In this document: piece by piece, positions 2,762 to 64,000 of the stretch
Position numbering within the stretch: the first letter of the stretch is position 1
Layout: each line of letters opens with the position of its first letter
Assembly (NCBI RefSeq): GCF_016903815.1
Contig: NZ_CP069973.1
Source: Escherichia coli
GTDB taxonomy: Bacteria > Pseudomonadota > Gammaproteobacteria > Enterobacterales > Enterobacteriaceae
Length of the DNA: 64,000 nt
Reading direction: 5' to 3' (one strand)
The notes under the pieces: generated by a model
The model's database searches: none
What the model was told of the DNA's origin: nothing
Seen by the model: only the letters and a program-made list of their open reading frames with translations
Made by a program: the position numbers and the translations under genes

Positions 2762-3373
<612 letters not shown>

Positions 3374-4387
3374 TTACAGGTACATTCAGTTTCTTTAGTA
3401 AATCGGAAGTAAATAAGATACGTAGCACATATCAATATAGGTTAAACGAGATTAAGTTTTAATTATTTCGATTAGGTTTAAATTTATGTTTTTTTCCTGA
3501 TGAGTGTCAATATGTGAACAGAAAAGGAATTCCATGGTTAAGTCAATATTTACAAAAAATGAAAATATTGCTTTTTTGATAAGAAGAAAAAGACATTCAG
3601 TTTCATAAGGTTATTGGCAATATAACGTTCAATTCTTACTTGCATTTTATATTAGCCAGGAACTTTGCCCTGAGGTGTTAGGAATAGTCTTAATGTGTTG
3701 TGTAATGGACTAGTAAAAAAACAAGTTTAAATGATAAGAAATAGAATATAAAACTATCATGAGTTATAATTAAAGATGATTTTCCAATCAGTAAGGTGTT
3801 TTAATGGATTAACATGCCGCACAAAATGGTTATGGGTGTTCATCCCAATAAGTGATGAAAAATTAAACAGGTGTAAGTACGTCATCTGTCCGGTAAGCCC
3901 CCTAAGAGCCAAATTAAGTGAAGTTAAACGAAGACTGCCAGTTGTCACAGGAACGATGGCCTCTTTGCCAGGGCACTGCATTCAGTCATCTGTGCGCGTT
4001 ACTCTAACTGGCACTCGAACGTCGGCGATGGGGTTACCGGTGGATCAGGCCGTTCCTGTGGCGTAAACGTTTTTATGTCAGTACCAACAGATTTACCACA
4101 TTTATCATCTTAACCGTTTGAGTGTAAATGCAGGCTGCGTCGCAAAGGGAGGAAACTGAGTGGCGTGTTCAGTCTAAAAGAGAGTTGATGCCAGCATACA
4201 GGGCGCACCTGGTCAACAAGTCAACATTAATATAATGGAATATTCGGAGAGAAACGTCAGGCAGTTGACCTTAAATGAACAGGAAGATACATCCCCAGGA
4301 AAATTAATGCTGGTGTAATAAATACACCAACATTAATCCGGTCTGATTATTAATCAGACAAATATCGTTAATTCGTCGAATTTTGAA

Positions 4388-27732: not shown

Positions 27733-29403
27733 TCATTTTTTCACTCTCACCGGCATCCCATTTGCCACAAAATATCTTGCCGTGCTCCTCGGCAACGCTT
27801 CTTGCCCGCGAATCATATCCGCTATTTTCTCGCCAATCATAATCGTCGTGGCGTTCAAATTGCCGGTGATAATTTGCGGCATAATTGACGCATCCACCAC
27901 GCGCAGGCCTTCCAGCCCGTGTACGCGGCCTTCGCCGTCAACCACTGCCATCTCGTCATAACCCATTTTGCAGGTACCGCACGGGTGGAAGGCGGTTTCG
28001 GCGTGGTTACGCACGAACTCATCGAGCTGCTCATCCGTCTGGCATTCGACACCGGGGCTGATTTCGCGGCCACGATACTGATCCAGCGCCGGTTGATGCA
28101 TGATCTCGCGGGTGATGCGAATTGCGTCGCGGAACTCCTGCCAGTCCTGCTCGTGCGACATGTAGTTAAACAGAATCGCTGGATGCTGGTGCGGGTCGCG
28201 GGATTTAATCCGCACATGCCCACGGCTTGGCGAGCGCATCGATCCGACGTGGCACTGGAAGCCGTGCTCTTTCACTGCGTTCGAGCCGTTATAGTTAATC
28301 GCCACTGGCAGGAAATGGTACTGAATATTCGGCCACGCAAATTCCTCACGGCTGCGAATAAATCCGCCTGCTTCAAAGTGGTTGCTGGCACCAACGCCGG
28401 TGCCGCCAAACAGCCACTCCGCACCGATTTTCGGCTGATTCCACCACTGCAGGGCAGGGTAGAGGGAAACCGGTTCTTTGCACTCATATTGCAGATACAT
28501 CTCCAGGTGATCCTGAAGATTTTCGCCGACGCCGGGTAAATCATGCACCAGCGGAATATCAAACTCCGCCAGCAGTTCAGCGCTACCCACGCCGGAACGT
28601 TGCAGGATCTGCGGTGAGGCAATCGCGCCTGCACATAACAGCACCTCTTTATTCGCCGCCGCGCGGGTCGGAATGGTGCTGTCGCCTTCCAGCCACTCGA
28701 CGCCCACCGCGCGTTTGCCGTCAAAAATGATGTGATCGGTCATGGCGTGAGTACGAATGGTCAGGTTAGGGCGCGATTTGGCCTGATCGAGATAGCCACG
28801 CGCGGTGCTGGCGCGACGGCCATGCGGCGTGACGGTGCGATCCATCGGGCCAAAACCTTCCTGCTGATAGCCGTTGAGATCGTCCGTGCGCGGGTAGCCC
28901 GCCTGCACGCCCGCTTCAATCATCGCTTCAAACAGCGGATTGACGCCGGGTTTGGAGGTGGTGACGCTCACCGGGCCATCACCGCCGTGGTAGTCGTTCT
29001 CGCCCACGTCGCGAGTCTCGGCCTTGCGGTAGTAGGGCAGGCAGTCGAGATAACTCCAGTTCTCCAGGCCAGGTTCTTGCGCCCAGTTGTCGAGATCCAG
29101 CGCGTTGCCACGGATGTAGCACATGCCGTTGATCAGCGACGATCCACCCAGACCTTTACCGCGTCCGCACTCCATGCGGCGGTTATTCATAAACGGTTCA
29201 GGTTCCGTTTCATAGGCCCAGTTGTAGCGTTTACCCTGTAGCGGGAACGCCAGCGCTGCGGGCATCTGGGTGCGGAAGTCAAAGCGATAGTCCGGGCCGC
29301 CCGCTTCAAGCAGCAGCACGGAGGTATTCGGATCTTCAGTCAGACGGGTAGCGAGAACGTTGCCGGCTGAGCCGGCACCAATAATGATGTAGTCAAATTG
29401 CAA
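27733..29403 (-). CDS. betA: Choline dehydrogenase (GMC oxidoreductase)
   Basis: 556-aa product beginning (M)[20 protein letters not shown] from a TTG codon 7 nt after AGGAGG. Confidence 0.9.
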
Positions 29404-29416
29404 ATAAACCTCCTGG

Positions 29417-30889
29417 TTAGAATATGGACTGGAATTTAGCCATCTCAACCTGGATGGACTTCACCTGGGTGTAACTCTGGAGCGTCATCACGCCGTTCTC
29501 GCGACCAATGCCGGAGTGTTTGTAGCCGCCAACGGGCATCTCTGCCGGGGATTCGCCCCAGGTGTTGATCCAGCAAATACCCGCTTCCAGCTGATGAATG
29601 ACGCGATGCGCGCGGTTCAGGTCCGCCGTCACGATGCCCGCCGCCAGGCCGTAGTCGGTATCATTGGCGCGGCGAATCACTTCGTCCTCAGATTCATAAG
29701 TGAGAAGCGACATCACCGGACCGAAGATCTCTTCGCGCACGATGGTCATTTCGTCGCGGCAATCGGTGAACACGGTCGGTGCAACCCATGCGCCGTTATC
29801 GAAGCCATCGCCTTTCAATACATCGCCGCCGCACAGTACGCGCGCGCCTTCCTCTTTGCCTTTGGCGATGTAACGCAGCACGTTATCGCGATGCGGGAAG
29901 CTGACCAGCGGGCCGAAGTTAGTTTGCGGATCGAAAACGTCGCCCGCGCGAATGCGCTCAACGCGCGCCAGAATCTTTTGTTCAAATGCGGCTTTGCATT
30001 TCGCCGGAATAAACACGCGGGTGCCGTTGGTACACACCTGACCGGAGCTGAAGAAGTTCGCCATCATGGCGATATCAGCGGCGAGATCGAGATCCGCATC
30101 GTCGAAAACGATCAGCGGTGATTTACCGCCCAGCTCCATGGTCACTTCTTTCAGGGAGGAAGCCGCCGAGTTAGCCATCACTTTTTTGCCGCTGGCGACA
30201 CCGCCGGTAAATGACACTTTGGCAATGCCCGGATGCTCGGTCAGATACTGCCCGGTTTCCGCACCTACGCCCGGCAGCACGTTAAATACGCCGTCCGGCA
30301 GGCCCGCTTCGCTGTAAATTTCGGCCAGCTTTAACGCGGTAAGCGGGGTGACTTCGCTCGGTTTGAAAATCATCGCGTTGCCTGCCGCCAGCGCCGGTGC
30401 GGATTTCCACAAGGCAATCTGGATCGGGTAGTTCCATGCGCCAATCCCTGCCACTACGCCCAGCGGTTCGCGGCGGGTATAAACAAATGACGTCTCACGC
30501 AATGGGATCTGGCTGCCTTCCAGCGACGGGATCAGCCCGGCGTAGTACTCGAGCACGTCCGCGCCGGTAACGATATCGACGGTTGAGGTTTCCGAATACG
30601 CTTTTCCGGTGTCGAGGGTTTCCAGTTTTGCGAGTTCGTCATTGCGTTCACGCAGAATATCAACGGCCCGACGCAGAATACGCGAGCGCTCCATAGCGGT
30701 CATCGCCGCCCAGATTTTTTGCCCCTGTTGGGCACTCTTCACGGCGCGATCGACATCCTCACGCCCGGCGGCCTGCACGGTCGCCAGCACGTTACCGTTG
30801 GCCGGGTTAATGGTCTCGAAGGTGCGACCGCTGGTGGCGGAGGTATAACCACCATGTATATAAAGCTGCTGTTCTGCCATTCGGGACAT
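29417..30889 (-). CDS. betB: Betaine aldehyde dehydrogenase
   Basis: 490-aa aldehyde dehydrogenase ([15 protein letters not shown]...; EMELGGKSP catalytic region). Confidence 0.92.
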
Positions 30890-30902
30890 CACGTTTCCTC
30901 GG

Positions 30903-31490
30903 TTAATCGGTGGGTAAATGCTGAGTAATAAAGTGACGGGTCAGCGAGTGTGCGAGAGGTTTATCCAGCGGTTTGCCGCTCAGTGCCGCGCGCAGCCATA
31001 ATCCGTCAATCAGCGCGGCAAGGCCGTAGCCCGCTTCCTGTGCCTGTTGGCGCGGTAACTCGCGGTGAAATTCGCTCACCAGATTCGACAACAAGCGGCG
31101 GCTGCTCACCTGCTGCAAACGGTAAAGCATTGGCTGATGCATACTGCTGGCCCAAAACGCCAACCAGGCTTTCATCGCAGCATTACTGACCTGCGTTTCA
31201 TCGAAATTCCCGTCAACAATCGCCTGTAATCGCTGCTCTGCACTGCCCTGCGGAAGTGCATGTAATCGATTCAAAACCGCGTCACGCAGCTGACTGGTGA
31301 TATCGCGCATGGTTGCTTCCAGCAGACCATTTTTGTCCCTGAAATAGTGGCTGATGATCCCCGTAGAAACGCCTGCACGGCGGGCGATCTGCGCGATCGT
31401 TGCATCGTGCATGCCCACTTCATTTATTGCTTCCAGCGTGGCGTCGATCAGTTGTCTGCGCCGGATCGACTGCATCCCCAATTTGGGCAT
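30903..31490 (-). CDS. betI: TetR-family choline-responsive repressor
   Basis: 195-aa product from [14 protein letters not shown]; TetR HTH ([20 protein letters not shown]). Confidence 0.9.
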
Positions 31491-31534
31491 TTTCGCCACT
31501 CCATTCATCAGCGTTGTTTATCTATTAAAGCGGT

Positions 31535-31552
31535 TATTGATTGGACGTTCAA
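31535..31552. promoter_or_regulatory. Candidate BetI operator in the betI/betT divergent promoter region
   Basis: Imperfect dyad ATTGATTGGACGTTCAAT centred on ACGT within the 128-bp intergenic region. Confidence 0.3.
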
Positions 31553-31618
31553 TATAAAATGTGTCTTAATTGTTACGAATTTGATTTTAAATGGTAACAA
31601 TAACAGTGGGGATACTGG

Positions 31619-33652
31619 ATGACAGACCTTTCACACAGCAGGGAAAAGGACAAAATCAATCCGGTGGTGTTTTACACCTCCGCCGGACTGATTTTGTTGT
31701 TTTCCCTGACAACGATCCTGTTTCGCGACTTCTCGGCCCTGTGGATTGGCCGCACGCTGGACTGGGTTTCTAAAACCTTCGGTTGGTACTATCTGCTGGC
31801 GGCAACGCTCTATATTGTCTTTGTGGTCTGTATCGCTTGTTCGCGTTTTGGTTCGGTGAAGCTCGGGCCAGAACAATCCAAACCGGAATTCAGTCTGCTG
31901 AGTTGGGCGGCGATGCTGTTTGCTGCCGGGATCGGTATCGACCTGATGTTCTTCTCCGTAGCCGAACCGGTAACGCAGTATATGCAGCCGCCGGAAGGCG
32001 CGGGTCAGACGATTGAGGCTGCGCGTCAGGCGATGGTCTGGACGCTGTTTCACTACGGCTTAACCGGCTGGTCGATGTATGCGCTGATGGGCATGGCGCT
32101 CGGATACTTTAGCTATCGTTATAATTTGCCGCTCACCATCCGCTCGGCGCTGTACCCGATCTTCGGTAAACGGATTAACGGGCCGATTGGTCATTCAGTG
32201 GATATTGCAGCGGTAATCGGCACCATCTTCGGTATTGCCACTACGCTCGGTATCGGTGTGGTGCAGCTTAACTATGGCTTGAGCGTACTGTTTGATATTC
32301 CTGATTCGATGGCGGCGAAAGCGGCACTGATCGCCTTGTCGGTGATCATCGCAACAATCTCTGTCACCTCCGGTGTCGATAAGGGCATTCGCGTGTTATC
32401 GGAACTCAACGTTGCGCTGGCGCTGGGGTTGATCCTGTTCGTGCTGTTTATGGGCGACACCTCGTTCCTGCTTAATGCGCTGGTGCTGAACGTTGGCGAC
32501 TATGTGAATCGCTTTATGGGCATGACGCTCAACAGTTTTGCCTTCGACCGTCCGGTTGAGTGGATGAATAACTGGACGCTCTTCTTCTGGGCATGGTGGG
32601 TGGCATGGTCGCCGTTTGTCGGCTTGTTCCTGGCGCGTATCTCGCGTGGGCGTACCATTCGCCAGTTCGTGCTGGGCACGTTGATTATTCCGTTTACCTT
32701 CACGCTGTTATGGCTCTCGGTGTTCGGCAATAGCGCGCTGTATGAAATCATCCACGGCGGCGCGGCATTTGCCGAGGAAGCGATGGTCCATCCGGAGCGC
32801 GGCTTCTACAGCCTGCTGGCGCAGTATCCGGCGTTTACCTTTAGCGCCTCCGTCGCCACCATTACTGGCCTGCTGTTTTATGTGACCTCGGCGGACTCCG
32901 GGGCGCTGGTGCTGGGGAATTTCACCTCGCAGCTTAAAGATATCAACAGCGACGCCCCCGGCTGGCTGCGCGTCTTCTGGTCGGTGGCGATTGGCCTGCT
33001 GACGCTCGGCATGCTGATGACCAACGGGATATCCGCGCTGCAAAACACCACGGTGATTATGGGTCTGCCGTTCAGCTTTGTGATTTTCTTCGTGATGGCG
33101 GGGTTGTATAAATCTCTGAAGGTAGAAGATTACCGCCGTGAAAGTGCCAACCGTGATACCGCGCCGCGACCGCTGGGGCTTCAGGATCGCCTGAGCTGGA
33201 AAAAACGTCTCTCGCGCCTGATGAATTATCCAGGCACGCGTTACACTAAACAGATGATGGAGACGGTCTGTTACCCGGCAATGGAAGAAGTGGCGCAGGA
33301 GCTGCGGTTGCGCGGCGCGTACGTGGAGCTAAAAAACCTGCCGCCGGAAGAGGGACAACAGTTGGGGCATCTGGATTTGTTGGTGCATATGGGCGAAGAG
33401 CAAAACTTTGTCTATCAGATTTGGCCGCAGCAATACTCGGTGCCGGGCTTTACCTACCGCGCACGTAGCGGGAAATCGACCTACTACCGGCTGGAAACCT
33501 TCCTGTTAGAAGGCAGCCAGGGCAACGACCTGATGGACTACAGCAAAGAGCAGGTGATCACCGATATTCTCGATCAGTACGAGCGGCACCTTAACTTTAT
33601 CCATCTCCATCGTGAAGCGCCGGGCCATAGCGTGATGTTCCCGGACGCGTGA
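31619..33652 (+). CDS. betT: BCCT-family choline transporter
   Basis: 677-aa polytopic membrane protein with the BCCT Trp-rich signature (WTLFFWAWWVAWSPFVGLFLARISRGRTIR). Confidence 0.92.
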   Translation: MTDLSHSREKDKINPVVFYTSAGLILLFSLTTILFRDFSALWIGRTLDWVSKTFGWYYLLAATLYIVFVVCIACSRFGSVKLGPEQSKPEFSLLSWAAMLFAAGIGIDLMFFSVAEPVTQYMQPPEGAGQTIEAARQAMVWTLFHYGLTGWSMYALMGMALGYFSYRYNLPLTIRSALYPIFGKRINGPIGHSVDIAAVIGTIFGIATTLGIGVVQLNYGLSVLFDIPDSMAAKAALIALSVIIATISVTSGVDKGIRVLSELNVALALGLILFVLFMGDTSFLLNALVLNVGDYVNRFMGMTLNSFAFDRPVEWMNNWTLFFWAWWVAWSPFVGLFLARISRGRTIRQFVLGTLIIPFTFTLLWLSVFGNSALYEIIHGGAAFAEEAMVHPERGFYSLLAQYPAFTFSASVATITGLLFYVTSADSGALVLGNFTSQLKDINSDAPGWLRVFWSVAIGLLTLGMLMTNGISALQNTTVIMGLPFSFVIFFVMAGLYKSLKVEDYRRESANRDTAPRPLGLQDRLSWKKRLSRLMNYPGTRYTKQMMETVCYPAMEEVAQELRLRGAYVELKNLPPEEGQQLGHLDLLVHMGEEQNFVYQIWPQQYSVPGFTYRARSGKSTYYRLETFLLEGSQGNDLMDYSKEQVITDILDQYERHLNFIHLHREAPGHSVMFPDA

Positions 33653-52184: not shown

Positions 52185-52341
52185 CCATCATGTTTGTGTG
52201 GGGTCTTTTCTGTATCTTACGCATCGCACTCAAGCCTGACAGAAAATATGCTGTAAGGCTCATATCAAAAACCGCCATTAGCTCATCAGGAAGAGCAGAC
52301 GACAACCAGGATTGTTGTATGGTACGGGGTTCGAGGCCTCG

Positions 52342-52587
52342 ATGGCGGTCCAACTTTTCATAACTCTTCTGAATCAGCTCCCCTTATTATCATCCCTGCA
52401 AAGTGGAACATTACCATTGTTTGGCTATTCAGGACGGGTCAGAGCAATGAAAAAAGCCCACACAGGGGAGAGTGGGCTGAAATGGGAAGCTAAAGACTCA
52501 AGTAAACTTATCGGAAATAAGGACCACGCATTACGGGGGCTATCATCGCCGATGGTCGGGATTCGGCAAATCAGGTTGATTACGTAG
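52342..52587 (+). CDS. yahM: Small hypothetical protein
   Basis: 81-aa product from MAVQLFITLLNQ within a 91-aa track ORF; symbol by size and synteny. Confidence 0.45.
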   Translation: MAVQLFITLLNQLPLLSSLQSGTLPLFGYSGRVRAMKKAHTGESGLKWEAKDSSKLIGNKDHALRGLSSPMVGIRQIRLIT

Positions 52588-59251: not shown

Positions 59252-61138
59252 ATGTCTTTTAGCGAATTTTATCAGCGTTCGATTAACGAACCGGAGCAGT
59301 TCTGGGCCGAGCAGGCCCGGCGTATTGACTGGCAGACGCCCTTTACGCAAACGCTCGATCACAGCAATCCGCCGTTTGCCCGTTGGTTTTGTGAAGGCCG
59401 AACCAACTTGTGTCACAACGCTATCGACCGCTGGCTGGAGAAACAGCCAGAGGCGCTGGCGCTGATTGCCGTCTCTTCGGAAACAGAAGAAGAGCGCACC
59501 TTTACCTTTCGTCAGCTGCATGACGAAGTGAACGCGGTGGCCTCAATGTTGCGTTCATTGGGCGTGCAGCGTGGCGATCGGGTGCTGGTGTATATGCCGA
59601 TGATTGCCGAAGCGCATATTACTCTGCTGGCCTGCGCGCGCATTGGCGCTATTCACTCGGTGGTGTTTGGTGGATTTGCCTCGCACAGCGTGGCGGCGCG
59701 AATTGATGATGCTAAACCGGTGCTGATTGTCTCGGCTGATGCCGGAGCGCGCGGTGGCAAAATCATTCCCTATAAAAAATTACTCGACGATGCGATAAGT
59801 CAGGCGCAGCACCAGCCACGCCATGTTTTGCTGGTGGATCGCGGGCTGGCGAAAATGGCACGCGTCAGCGGGCGGGATGTCGATTTCGCGTCGTTGCGCC
59901 ATCAACACATCGGCGCGCGGGTACCGGTGGCGTGGCTGGAATCCAACGAAACCTCCTGCATTCTCTACACCTCCGGCACGACCGGCAAACCTAAAGGCGT
60001 GCAGCGTGACGTTGGCGGATATGCGGTGGCGCTGGCGACCTCGATGGAAACCATTTTTGGCGGCAAAGCGGGCGGTGTGTTCTTTTGTGCTTCGGATATT
60101 GGCTGGGTGGTGGGGCATTCGTATATCGTCTACGCGCCGCTGCTGGCGGGGATGGCGACTATCGTTTACGAAGGATTGCCGACCTGGCCGGACTGCGGTG
60201 TGTGGTGGAAAATCGTCGAGAAATATCAGGTTAGCCGGATGTTCTCAGCGCCGACCGCCATTCGCGTGCTGAAAAAATTCCCTACCGCTGAAATTCGCAA
60301 ACACGATCTCTCGTCGCTGGAAGTGCTCTATCTGGCGGGGGAGCCGCTGGACGAGCCGACCGCCAGTTGGGTGAGCAATACGCTGGATGTGCCGGTCATC
60401 GACAACTACTGGCAGACCGAATCCGGCTGGCCGATTATGGCGATTGCTCGCGGTCTGGACGACAGGCCGACGCGTCTGGGTAGCCCCGGCGTGCCGATGT
60501 ATGGCTATAACGTGCAGTTGCTCAATGAAGTCACCGGCGAACCGTGCGGCGTCAACGAGAAAGGGATGCTGGTGGTGGAAGGGCCGCTGCCGCCGGGGTG
60601 TATTCAGACCATTTGGGGCGACGACGACCGCTTTGTGAAGACGTACTGGTCGCTGTTTTCCCGTCCGGTGTACGCCACTTTTGACTGGGGGATCCGCGAT
60701 GCTGACGGTTATCACTTTATTCTCGGGCGCACTGACGATGTGATTAACGTTGCCGGGCATCGGCTGGGGACGCGCGAGATTGAAGAGAGTATCTCCAGTC
60801 ATCCGGGCGTTGCCGAAGTGGCAGTGGTTGGGGTGAAAGATGCGCTGAAAGGGCAGGTGGCGGTGGCGTTTGTCATTCCGAAAGAGAGCGACAGCCTGGA
60901 AGATCGCGAGGTGGCGCACTCGCAAGAGAAGGCGATTATGGCGCTGGTGGACAGCCAGATTGGCAACTTTGGTCGCCCGGCGCACGTCTGGTTTGTCTCG
61001 CAATTACCGAAAACGCGATCCGGAAAAATGCTGCGCCGCACGATCCAGGCGATTTGCGAAGGACGCGATCCAGGGGATCTGACGACCATTGATGATCCTG
61101 CGTCGTTGGATCAGATCCGCCAGGCGATGGAAGAGTAG
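59252..61138 (+). CDS. prpE: Propionyl-CoA synthetase
   Basis: 628-aa acyl-CoA synthetase (YTSGTTGKPKG AMP-binding motif). Confidence 0.93.
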   Translation: MSFSEFYQRSINEPEQFWAEQARRIDWQTPFTQTLDHSNPPFARWFCEGRTNLCHNAIDRWLEKQPEALALIAVSSETEEERTFTFRQLHDEVNAVASMLRSLGVQRGDRVLVYMPMIAEAHITLLACARIGAIHSVVFGGFASHSVAARIDDAKPVLIVSADAGARGGKIIPYKKLLDDAISQAQHQPRHVLLVDRGLAKMARVSGRDVDFASLRHQHIGARVPVAWLESNETSCILYTSGTTGKPKGVQRDVGGYAVALATSMETIFGGKAGGVFFCASDIGWVVGHSYIVYAPLLAGMATIVYEGLPTWPDCGVWWKIVEKYQVSRMFSAPTAIRVLKKFPTAEIRKHDLSSLEVLYLAGEPLDEPTASWVSNTLDVPVIDNYWQTESGWPIMAIARGLDDRPTRLGSPGVPMYGYNVQLLNEVTGEPCGVNEKGMLVVEGPLPPGCIQTIWGDDDRFVKTYWSLFSRPVYATFDWGIRDADGYHFILGRTDDVINVAGHRLGTREIEESISSHPGVAEVAVVGVKDALKGQVAVAFVIPKESDSLEDREVAHSQEKAIMALVDSQIGNFGRPAHVWFVSQLPKTRSGKMLRRTIQAICEGRDPGDLTTIDDPASLDQIRQAMEE

Positions 61139-61140
61139 GT

Positions 61141-61220
61141 TATTGTCGGATGCGTCGCCTGGCGCATCCGACACCATGCGCCGATGCCTGATGCGACGCT
61201 TACCGCGTCTTATTATGGCT
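61141..61220. repeat. Pair of REP elements (BIME-like) between prpE and codB
   Basis: TGTCGGATGCG-TCGCCTG-GCGCATCCGACA perfect 11-bp hairpin, then GCCTGATGCGACGCTTACCGCGTCTTAT matching the REP consensus. Confidence 0.7.
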
Positions 61221-61374
61221 ACCCACTGTTTTTACACCGATAATTTTTCCCCCACCTTTTTGCATTCATTCATATAAAAAATATATTTCCCCACGAAAAC
61301 GATTGCTTTTTATCTTCAGATGAATAGAATGCGGCGGATTTTTTGGGTTTCAAACAGCAAAAAGGGGGAATTTC

Positions 61375-62634
61375 GTGTCGCAAGATAACAACTTTAGCCA
61401 GGGGCCAGTCCCGCAGTCGGCGCGGAAAGGGGTATTGGCATTGACGTTCGTCATGCTGGGATTAACCTTCTTTTCCGCCAGTATGTGGACCGGCGGCACT
61501 CTCGGAACCGGTCTTAGCTATCATGATTTCTTCCTCGCAGTTCTCATCGGTAATCTTCTCCTCGGTATTTACACTTCATTTCTTGGTTACATTGGCGCAA
61601 AAACCGGCCTGACCACTCATCTTCTTGCTCGCTTCTCGTTTGGTGTTAAAGGCTCATGGCTGCCTTCACTGCTGCTGGGCGGCACTCAGGTCGGCTGGTT
61701 TGGCGTTGGCGTGGCGATGTTTGCTATTCCGGTGGGCAAGGCAACCGGGCTGGATATTAATTTGCTGATTGCCGTCTCCGGTTTACTGATGACCGTCACC
61801 GTCTTCTTTGGCATTTCGGCGCTGACGGTTCTTTCGGTGATTGCAGTTCCGGCTATCGCCTGTCTTGGCGGTTATTCCGTGTGGTTGGCCGTTAACGGCA
61901 TGGGCGGCCTGGACGCATTAAAAGCGGTCGTTCCCGCACAACCGTTAGATTTCAATGTCGCGCTGGCGCTGGTTGTGGGGTCATTTATCAGTGCGGGCAC
62001 GCTCACCGCTGACTTTGTCCGGTTTGGTCGTAATGCCAAACTGGCGGTGCTGGTGGCGATGGTGGCCTTTTTCCTCGGCAACTCGTTGATGTTTATTTTC
62101 GGTGCAGCGGGCGCGGCGGCACTGGGGATGGCGGATATCTCTGATGTGATGATTGCTCAGGGTCTGCTGCTGCCTGCGATTGTGGTGCTGGGGCTGAATA
62201 TCTGGACCACCAACGATAACGCGCTCTATGCGTCGGGCTTAGGTTTCGCCAACATTACCGGGATGTCGAGCAAAACCCTTTCGGTAATCAACGGTATTAT
62301 CGGTACGGTCTGCGCACTATGGCTGTATAACAATTTTGTCGGCTGGCTGACCTTCCTTTCGGCAGCTATTCCTCCGGTAGGGGGCGTGATCATCGCTGAC
62401 TATCTGATGAACCGTCGCCGCTATGAGCACTTTGCGACCACGCGTATGATGAGTGTCAATTGGGTGGCGATTCTGGCGGTCGCCTTGGGGATTGCCGCAG
62501 GCCACTGGTTACCGGGTATTGTTCCGGTCAACGCGGTATTAGGTGGCGCGCTGAGCTATCTGATCCTTAACCCGATTTTGAATCGCAAAACGACGGCTGC
62601 AATGACGCATGTGGAGGCTAACAGTGTCGAATAA
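61375..62634 (+). CDS. codB: Cytosine permease
   Basis: 419-aa polytopic ORF, GTG start after AAGGGGGAA. Confidence 0.93.
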
Positions 62635-63907
62635 CGCTTTACAGACAATTATTAACGCCCGGTTACCCGGCAAAGAGGGGCTGTGGCAGATTCATCTGCT
62701 GGACGGAAAAATCAGCGCCATTGATGCGCAATCCGGGGTGATGCCCGTAACTGAAAACAGCCTGGATGCCGAACAAGGTTTAGTTATACCGCCGTTTGTG
62801 GAGCCACATATTCACCTGGACACCACGCAAACCGCCGGACAACCGAACTGGAATCAGTCCGGCACGCTGTTTGAAGGCATTGAACGCTGGGCCGAGCGCA
62901 AAGCGTTATTAACCCATGACGATGTGAAACAACGCGCCTAGCAAACGCTGAAATGGCAGATTGCCAACGGCATTCAGCATGTGCGTACCCATGTCGATGT
63001 TTCGGATGCAACGCTGACTGCGCTGAAAGCAATGCTGGAAGTGAAGCAGGAAGTCGCGCCGTGGATTGATCTGCAAATCGTCGCCTTCCCGCAGGAAGGG
63101 ATTTTGTCGTATCCCAACGGTGAAGCGTTGCTGGAAGAGGCGTTACGCTTAGGGGCAGATGTAGTGGGGGCGATTCCGCATTTTGAATTTACCCGTGAAT
63201 ACGGCGTGGAGTCGCTGCATAAAACCTTCGCCCTGGCGCAAAAATACGACCGTCTCATCGACGTTCACTGTGATGAGATTGATGACGAACAGTCGCGCTT
63301 TGTCGAAACCGTTGCAGCCCTGGCGCACCGTGAAGGCATGGGCGCGCGAGTCACCGCCAGCCACACCACGGCAATGCACTCCTATAACGGGGCGTATACC
63401 TCACGCCTGTTCCGCTTGCTGAAAATGTCCGGTATTAACTTTGTCGCCAACCCGTTGGTCAATATTCATCTACAAGGACGTTTCGATACGTACCCAAAAC
63501 GTCGCGGCATCACGCGCGTTAAAGAGATGCTGGAGTCCGGCATTAACGTCTGCTTTGGTCACGATGATGTCTTCGATCCGTGGTATCCGCTGGGAACGGC
63601 GAATATGCTGCAAGTGCTGCATATGGGGCTGCATGTTTGCCAGCTGATGGGCTACGGGCAGATTAACGATGGCCTGAATTTAATCACCCACCATAGCGCC
63701 AGGACGTTGAATTTGCAGGATTACGGCATTGCCGCCGGAAACAGCGCCAACCTGATTATCCTGCCGGCTGAAAATGGGTTTGACGCGCTGCGCCGTCAGG
63801 TTCCGGTGCGCTATTCGGTACGTGGCGGTAAGGTGATTGCCAGCACCCAACCAGCACAAACCACCGTATATCTGGAGCAGCCAGAAGCCATCGATTACAA
63901 ACGGTAA
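62624..63907 (+). pseudogene. codA: Cytosine deaminase reading frame interrupted by an in-frame TAG at 62939-62941
   Basis: GTG start overlapping the codB 3' end; frame reads ...[38 protein letters not shown] and then continues to the stop at 63907 (427 codons if read through); [10 protein letters not shown] metal-binding motif lies upstream of the stop. Confidence 0.8.
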
Positions 63908-63924
63908 TTTCCTCTGCGTTGAAG

Positions 63925-63948
63925 AGCCACTGACCTGTGTCAGTGGCT
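63925..63948. terminator. Stem-loop between convergent codA and cynR
   Basis: AGCCACTGAC-CTGT-GTCAGTGGCT perfect 10-bp stem. Confidence 0.5.
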
Positions 63949-64000
63949 ACCGTGATTCATGCCCGCCAACATCCGCACATTCTTCCAACGCCATGTGTAA
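63947..64000 (-). CDS. cynR: 3' end of a LysR-family regulator gene (cynR) entering from the right edge
   Basis: Reverse-strand frame ...LHMALEECADVGGHESR-stop; placement by recalled synteny only. Confidence 0.35.
   Translation of the reverse strand, partial: LHMALEECADVGGHESR

Follow-up and report, generated by a model that had tools for sequence, protein, structure and literature searches.

An amber codon at Trp106 of codA: a probable recent clonal pseudogene in a sub-branch of Escherichia coli ST405

The codBA operon of Escherichia coli encodes a cytosine permease, CodB, and a cytosine/isoguanine deaminase, CodA. In the window analysed here, a stretch of 64,000 nucleotides from contig NZ_CP069973.1, the codA frame is interrupted by a single amber codon. 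A sequence-only reading of this DNA had offered three explanations for the stop, namely a recent lesion, a sequencing error, or a codon that is read through by suppression. Is the stop real, does the cell still make a useful CodA, and how did the mutation arise? To answer these questions, we compared the locus with solved structures, curated family models, complete genomes, and public contigs. We put the probability at about 0.92 that codA is a recent nonsense pseudogene (Trp106 to amber) that is clonal in an ST405 sub-branch and has lost its function.

The codB gene (61375–62634, plus strand) is intact in the list of open reading frames and encodes 419 amino acids. In strain 7/2, whose sequence is identical here, it is annotated as coding sequence WP_000076233.1, a protein also recorded for a K-12 derivative and the B2 strain JJ1886. 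The codA frame (62624–63907, plus strand) begins at a GTG and shares its first 11 nt with the end of codB. As translated from the window, it comprises 427 codons and a terminal TAA, with one internal stop, a TAG at codon 106 (62939–62941, plus strand) that lies between DDVKQRA and QTLKWQ in the protein. The frame on the 3′ side of this codon is otherwise intact. Strain 7/2 matches the window base for base between 56624 and 64000, and its RefSeq codA feature, which has matching coordinates, is recorded as "pseudo, internal stop". The sequence-only reading had described this GTG-initiated frame, its single TAG, the open sequence downstream, and the intact codB, all of which agree with the translation and the annotation. 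The 3′ end of cynR (63947–64000, minus strand, placed by the RefSeq record of strain 7/2, which has the same sequence) is convergent with codA. As no gene follows codA in the codBA operon and cynR faces it on the opposite strand, the stop is expected to exert no polarity on other genes.

The identity of the lost residue was established by comparison with the enzyme. The window frame aligns end to end with the CodA chain of PDB entry 3o7u (E = 2.9e-290), and a tryptophan falls exactly at the codon-106 position. Crystallised E. coli CodA entries, including 3o7u and 1k6w, carry tryptophan at the position of residue 106, and the sister genomes described below have TGG there, so the Trp106 proposed in the sequence-only reading is borne out. 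Once this tryptophan is put back, the protein reaches 895.6 bits with the NCBIfam model NF006685, for which the curated cut-off is 483 bits, and it ranks as a full-length family member. The locus shares with that of E. coli CodA (PDB 1K6W and 3O7U; NF006685 / PRK09230; amidohydrolase superfamily) the order prpE-codB-codA-cynR and the start that overlaps codB. Apart from the stop, four amino-acid differences separate window codA from the K-12 enzyme. In contrast to the 427-residue enzyme, the window encodes a fragment of 105 residues, since the TAG at codon 106 breaks what should be an uninterrupted single-chain frame of about 427 codons. The earlier prediction of a truncation at about residue 105 agrees with the position of this codon.

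Sequencing errors most often take the form of one wrong base, and the rest of the codA frame is perfect; both points would fit a misread or misassembled base in a gene that is really intact. To evaluate this explanation, the allele was searched for in other genomes. The 1284-nt codA with TAG occurs as 100% identical copies in exactly 44 complete E. coli genomes. Likewise, among the 5,224 complete E. coli genomes with the locus, a 57-mer centred on the TAG has an exact match in 44 and none in the other 5,180. The carriers come from many laboratories and several continents, and their sources include humans (Sweden), the AR-bank, FDAARGOS, the WCHEC series, cattle, wild birds, an estuary, and other surface water. 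Moreover, the exact 105-aa N-terminal product is present on 932 public contigs (NCBI, ENA, and Logan), and the exact 308-aa C-terminal open reading frame is called as a separate gene on 875 contigs. Such split open reading frames are exemplified by BBL95089.1/BBL95090.1 and by strains BIDMC 77 and BWH 40. An identical allele in 44 complete genomes and some 900 contigs from different laboratories, countries, and hosts, together with the internal stop reported by RefSeq, excludes a sequencing error for practical purposes, and we regard the chance of an intact underlying gene as negligible. The same comparison argues against the view that CodA homologues naturally end at this point, given the absence of the TAG 57-mer from 5,180 of the 5,224 genomes and the solved enzyme, which is one chain of 427 residues.

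To trace the origin of the stop, we compared the window with its closest relatives. Strains 50579417, DA33137, and E597 are identical to the window over the 4,377 nt from 59624 to 64000, save for a G at 62940 (plus strand) that makes codon 106 TGG; their codA is annotated as intact (WP_001314516.1). When the carrier strain 7/2 is set against the same three genomes from prpE to cynX (7,284 nt), base 62940 is again the sole difference. A linked second mutation was considered because the start of cynX is annotated differently in the RefSeq record of strain 7/2; it was rejected, as the sequence is identical over the overlap, which reflects either an annotation difference or a cause further downstream. 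The intact ST405-type sister allele and the window allele are thus identical in DNA over at least 4.4–7.3 kb and stand one base apart, with G in the sisters and A in the window. Accordingly, one G-to-A transition explains the stop, as the sequence-only reading had proposed. In agreement with this, the next-best matches to window codA differ by one base in 1284.

The flanking sequence indicates how far this relationship extends. The 25 kb on the 5′ side of codA are near-identical in TAG carriers and TGG sisters. The relatedness of the sisters was judged by this 25-kb flanking identity, as the papers on 50579417 and DA33137 give no sequence type; one TGG sister is typed as O102:H6. The group of haplotypes with at least 99% identity contains about 93–100 complete genomes, and TAG is found in 44 of them, roughly half. 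Among the carriers, WCHEC96200 and WCHEC4533 belong to ST405, phylogroup D (PMC5762679, PMC9037040). Based on the identical codA haplotype in all 44 carriers and the near-identical flanks shared with TGG sisters, we infer that the TAG allele would have arisen once, from one transition within a single clone whose named carriers are ST405, phylogroup D, and the 44 carriers would then be monophyletic. All 44 TAG copies are also identical on the 3′ side of the stop and show no sign of decay. None would be expected, as clone-level divergence amounts to only 0–3 differences per 25 kb. Collectively, the closest orthologue is intact and differs only by the inactivating base, while the inactive allele is, among the complete genomes, confined to one lineage and recovered in independent assemblies. 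A recent lesion that arose within one clone is therefore the supported option among the three.

Next, the sequence context of the mutated base was considered. In the sister sequence, codons 105 and 106 read GCC TGG and contain the Dcm site CCTGG (L002 3314–3318). The mutated base is the fourth of this site (L002 3317), and the CCTAG of the window (62937–62941) is the remnant of the ancestral site. The mutated G pairs with the inner, Dcm-methylatable cytosine of CCAGG on the minus strand. The ancestral codA haplotype contains six Dcm sites, which give twelve possible deamination outcomes; 10 of these leave the protein unchanged, and the other two are R360K and the change of W106 to a stop. There are 141 possible nonsense substitutions in this codA haplotype, including 40 G:C-to-A:T transitions, and the W106 stop is the only one that depends on Dcm. 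The K-12 and B2 haplotypes have GCA TGG at these codons and thus lack the Dcm site, and no nonsense site in their codA depends on Dcm. Furthermore, dcm (WP_001157256.1) and vsr (WP_000228683.1) are both annotated as intact in strain 7/2. The observed change therefore combines an ancestral CCWGG, a substitution at the inner C:G pair, a G:C-to-A:T transition, and a lineage that encodes Dcm.

At Dcm sites, deamination of 5-methylcytosine yields a T:G mismatch, the lesion dealt with by very-short-patch repair (PMC2715241). By this route, a synonymous GCC at Ala105 would first create CCTGG across codons 105 and 106. The 5-methylcytosine opposite the G at 62940 might then deaminate, and a T:G mismatch that escaped very-short-patch repair would leave the G-to-A change. 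From the sequence context, we consider it probable that the mutation at 62940 arose in this way. Classic amber hotspots at CCAGG sites of lacI, which stem from 5-methylcytosine deamination and are counteracted by Vsr, were reportedly described by Coulondre and Miller in 1978. The codA site has in common with them the CCWGG sequence, the G:C-to-A:T change at the methylated inner cytosine pair, and the amber product. In contrast, the methylated cytosine of codA is on the non-coding strand, so that Trp TGG becomes TAG instead of Gln CAG becoming TAG, and the codA site requires a synonymous GCC at Ala105 and is limited to haplotypes that have it. If this origin holds, codA would illustrate, in natural isolates, how a silent substitution can give the following codon a nonsense hotspot that depends on methylation.

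A hotspot at this site would be expected to produce the stop on other GCC backgrounds as well. In an evenly spaced sample, about 40% of complete genomes are one base off the TAG 57-mer and presumably carry CCTGG with TGG, and no TAG was found outside the 44 carriers among the 5,224 complete genomes. Short contigs gave a less uniform picture. A 105-aa variant with V41I (P0009) is present on seven of them. Three of these seven, L018, L020, and L021, carry TAG on haplotypes that differ from the window at 4–9 positions per 2–3 kb. These differences are mostly alleles that also occur in K-12 or B2, which makes the contigs mosaics of ST405-like alleles and alleles of other lineages. No complete genome matches the haplotypes of L018, L020, and L021, and their best matches are ST405 carriers. 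Either genuine recombinant backgrounds or chimeras assembled from samples of mixed strains would account for them. A TGA at codon 106 in contig L019 was set aside as unreliable, since it lies 16 nt from the contig end among clustered mismatches.

One interpretation of these contigs is that the change of Ala105 from GCA to GCC made Trp106 a haplotype-specific amber hotspot, at which the knock-out recurs and is retained, or perhaps selected, in hospital-adapted multidrug-resistant clones, the ST405 sub-branch among them. If so, L018, L020, and L021 would be the first sign of independent origins. We consider this scenario unlikely.

Even a genuine amber codon might be compatible with CodA activity if it is read through efficiently, either by a suppressor tRNA or by natural insertion, and yields useful full-length enzyme. 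The fully intact frame on the 3′ side of the stop would fit such a scheme, although an intact frame is expected anyway from the tiny divergence of the clone. The base after the stop is C, and UAG followed by C is a relatively weak terminator in E. coli termination-context studies. Moreover, insertion of Gln, Tyr, Trp, and Lys by near-cognate tRNAs at UAG is known (PMC4333366). However, proteomics of RF1-proficient E. coli revealed no significant translation of UAG (PMC4333366), and the annotation of strain 7/2 shows an intact prmC and an intact prfA, the gene for release factor 1.

The sequence-only reading had pointed to amber suppressor tRNA alleles as a check on suppression. In one carrier genome, that of strain 7/2, we inspected the eight chromosomal tRNA genes that are a single anticodon change away from CUA. 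All eight are wild type: glnV and glnX have the anticodon CUG; tyrT, tyrV, and tyrU have GUA; serU has CGA; trpT has CCA; and leuX has CAA. None of the loci inspected on the strain 7/2 chromosome has a CUA anticodon, and no genuine tRNA gene lies within the window. With these loci wild type and prfA intact, the suppression option loses its basis in strain 7/2, and production of useful full-length CodA by read-through is very unlikely. A trace of near-cognate read-through product, probably with Gln at position 106, may be made.

The consequences of truncation were then considered at the level of the protein. Translation would terminate once residue 105 has been added, and the resulting fragment would have only the first HxH metal-binding motif. 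The corresponding N-terminal open reading frame (62624–62941, plus strand; 105 aa and stop) retains His62 and His64 of this motif and little else of the barrel, and it scores 163.6 bits against NF006685, below the cut-off of 483. In the Pfam assignment, Amidohydro_3 covers residues 48–405 of CodA; with the stop at 106, about 84% of the amidohydrolase domain is thus lost, along with 75% of the whole protein. His215, Glu218, His247, and Asp314 all lie on the 3′ side of the stop, which leaves only His62 and His64 before it. We take the four downstream residues to be the remaining metal ligands and catalytic residues of CodA; in the crystal structures the numbering is presumably lower by one (His61/63/214, Glu217, His246, and Asp313). 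In truncated codA, the ligands and catalytic residues are accordingly no longer carried by one polypeptide.

The sequence downstream of the stop retains a second open reading frame (62981–63907, plus strand), which appears in the list of open reading frames as 308 aa starting at a GTG at codon 120 and lacks the HxH motif. On its own, this C-terminal fragment reaches 676 bits against the CodA family model NF006685. Together the two open reading frames cover CodA except for 14 residues, and gene callers report both. These observations might suggest a functional split, in which the 105-aa fragment and a 308-aa fragment re-initiated at GTG 62981 assemble into an active enzyme. However, no Shine-Dalgarno-like sequence precedes GTG 62981 (20 nt upstream, ttgccaacggcattcagcat) or the next in-frame starts, and residues 106–119 would be absent from the assembled protein. 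In addition, the HxH motif and the other ligands of a single (beta/alpha)8 barrel would reside on separate chains. There is also no natural split CodA to serve as a precedent: in the sister, K-12-derivative, and B2 genomes examined, codA is one gene of 427 codons, and the exact TAG 57-mer is missing from nearly all genomes that have the locus (5,180 of 5,224). Such an assembly is therefore extremely unlikely.

With codA a nonsense pseudogene, cytosine/isoguanine deaminase activity is expected to be lost, while cytosine import through the intact CodB would be kept. From established CodA biology, the predicted phenotypes are that cytosine would be unusable as a source of pyrimidine or nitrogen and that the cells would resist 5-fluorocytosine. 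Loss of codA is the classic route to 5-fluorocytosine resistance. Laboratory codA mutants selected on 5-fluorocytosine have the same gene inactivated and are expected to show the same phenotype; in contrast, the allele described here is a natural one that has become fixed in a clinical clone, and nothing points to exposure to, or selection by, 5-fluorocytosine. Carriers should be unable to deaminate cytosine, isoguanine, and 5-fluorocytosine, which is relevant to counter-selection genetics based on codA and, marginally, to the conversion of flucytosine into 5-fluorouracil in the gut.

The frequency of the allele might be taken as a sign that codA loss is adaptive, having been selected in a hospital-associated clone through toxic cytosine analogues or altered pyrimidine salvage and having become common in the sub-branch for that reason. 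The presence of TAG in 44 of about 93–100 complete genomes of the haplotype group, the spread of carriers across humans, cattle, wild birds, water, and several continents, and the established link between codA loss and 5-fluorocytosine resistance would all fit this proposal. Nevertheless, one origin in one clone is equally explained by hitch-hiking. A general advantage is difficult to reconcile with the finding that about 40% of complete genomes appear to have CCTGG and yet no TAG occurs outside the clone, and no paper linking ST405 with codA was found. We therefore regard adaptive loss as doubtful. Most likely, the loss of codA is neutral: the allele would persist because loss of CodA costs little in the niche, and it would have hitch-hiked with a successful multidrug-resistant clone.

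The allele is already flagged in public records, as a pseudogene in RefSeq and as split open reading frames in GenBank. In the literature, we found no publication that mentions it, and searches for ST405 together with codA returned only unrelated word matches. The codA allele is an ordinary clone-specific nonsense pseudogene, and the Dcm context accounts neatly for its probable origin by a well-known mechanism; the allele does not challenge current understanding and has little importance beyond bookkeeping. In practical terms, it marks an ST405 sub-branch, which could be typed by this one base.

Beyond the table of Touchon et al. 2009, no published codA pseudogene of E. coli was found; that table lists codA as absent in B2 strains (PMC2617782). 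A general loss of codA in extraintestinal lineages was considered on this account and rejected, as the B2 strain JJ1886 has an intact codA of 427 codons and is missing only cynRTSX.

Based on sequence comparisons, the window is not taken from strain 7/2, a carrier of the same amber codA allele. A 768-bp IS1 element occupies 18867-19634 within an aldo/keto reductase gene, whose reading frame it interrupts at 18871. Its termini form imperfect inverted repeats of 23 nt, and it contains two open reading frames, one insA-like (91 aa) and one insB-like (167 aa). The element is flanked by a 9-bp target duplication, CGCTTGATT, at 18858-18866 and 19635-19643. In strain 7/2, this IS1 is absent and the reductase gene (CRT46_RS01525) is intact; therefore, the window derives from another member of the clone.

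Additional sequence is observed in some strains in the 25-kb region upstream of codA, equivalent to 37601-62600. Some of the closest relatives with an intact TGG codon in codA, including 50579417, AR_0372, and Z1002, contain about 2,977 bp of extra sequence here, such that their matches (H212-H220) are split into two pieces and extend over 27,977 nt in the record compared with 25,000 nt in the query. In the same region, the carrier strain 5283 has approximately 1,336 additional bases. These extra stretches look like mobile-element insertions, and they could help to subdivide the clone. Separately, and outside the window, the chromosome of strain 7/2 carries an ISEcp1-blaCTX-M-14 unit (29136-32836 of its fetched record, L013), which is flanked by a truncated lamB and IS903B fragments and lies close to sorbose PTS genes.

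Using the RefSeq annotation of strain 7/2, we mapped two further pseudogenes onto the window, both marked as frameshifted in the identical sequence of that strain. These are ykgL, at 4128-4353, and ykgE, at 23767-24485, the latter being the first gene of the lutABC-like lactate-utilisation operon ykgEFG.

For codA in other sequences, the contig logan:SRR18086811_417 (L019) shows TGA rather than TAG at codon 106 (positions 3316-3318), on a more divergent codBA haplotype with 98.7% identity. Because the contig ends 16 nt away and several mismatches cluster beside the codon, this TGA is probably an assembly-end artefact. Among B2 strains, codA has been listed as a missing function (Touchon et al. 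2009, Table 5; PMC2617782). However, in the B2 strain JJ1886 (fetched record L006), RefSeq annotates codA as intact; here lacA follows codA directly because cynRTSX is missing. Also outside the window, 8 of the approximately 5,230 codA matches in the ecoli_genomes collection are located on plasmids instead of chromosomes.

Between yahL and yahM, ARAGORN calls an 81-nt tRNA-Ser (GGA) on the plus strand at 52272-52352. The sequence has a cloverleaf fold (-29 kcal/mol, z = -1.9), and both the T-loop motif GGUUCGA and a 3' CCA are present. A search for an Rfam tRNA match gave none at E values up to 1, and the RefSeq annotation has no tRNA at this position. One possible reading of this element, which lies upstream of yahM, is a tRNA-like relic. 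The surrounding stretch of 161 nt is core E. coli sequence, found in 5,169 of the 5,426 genomes, K-12 among them.
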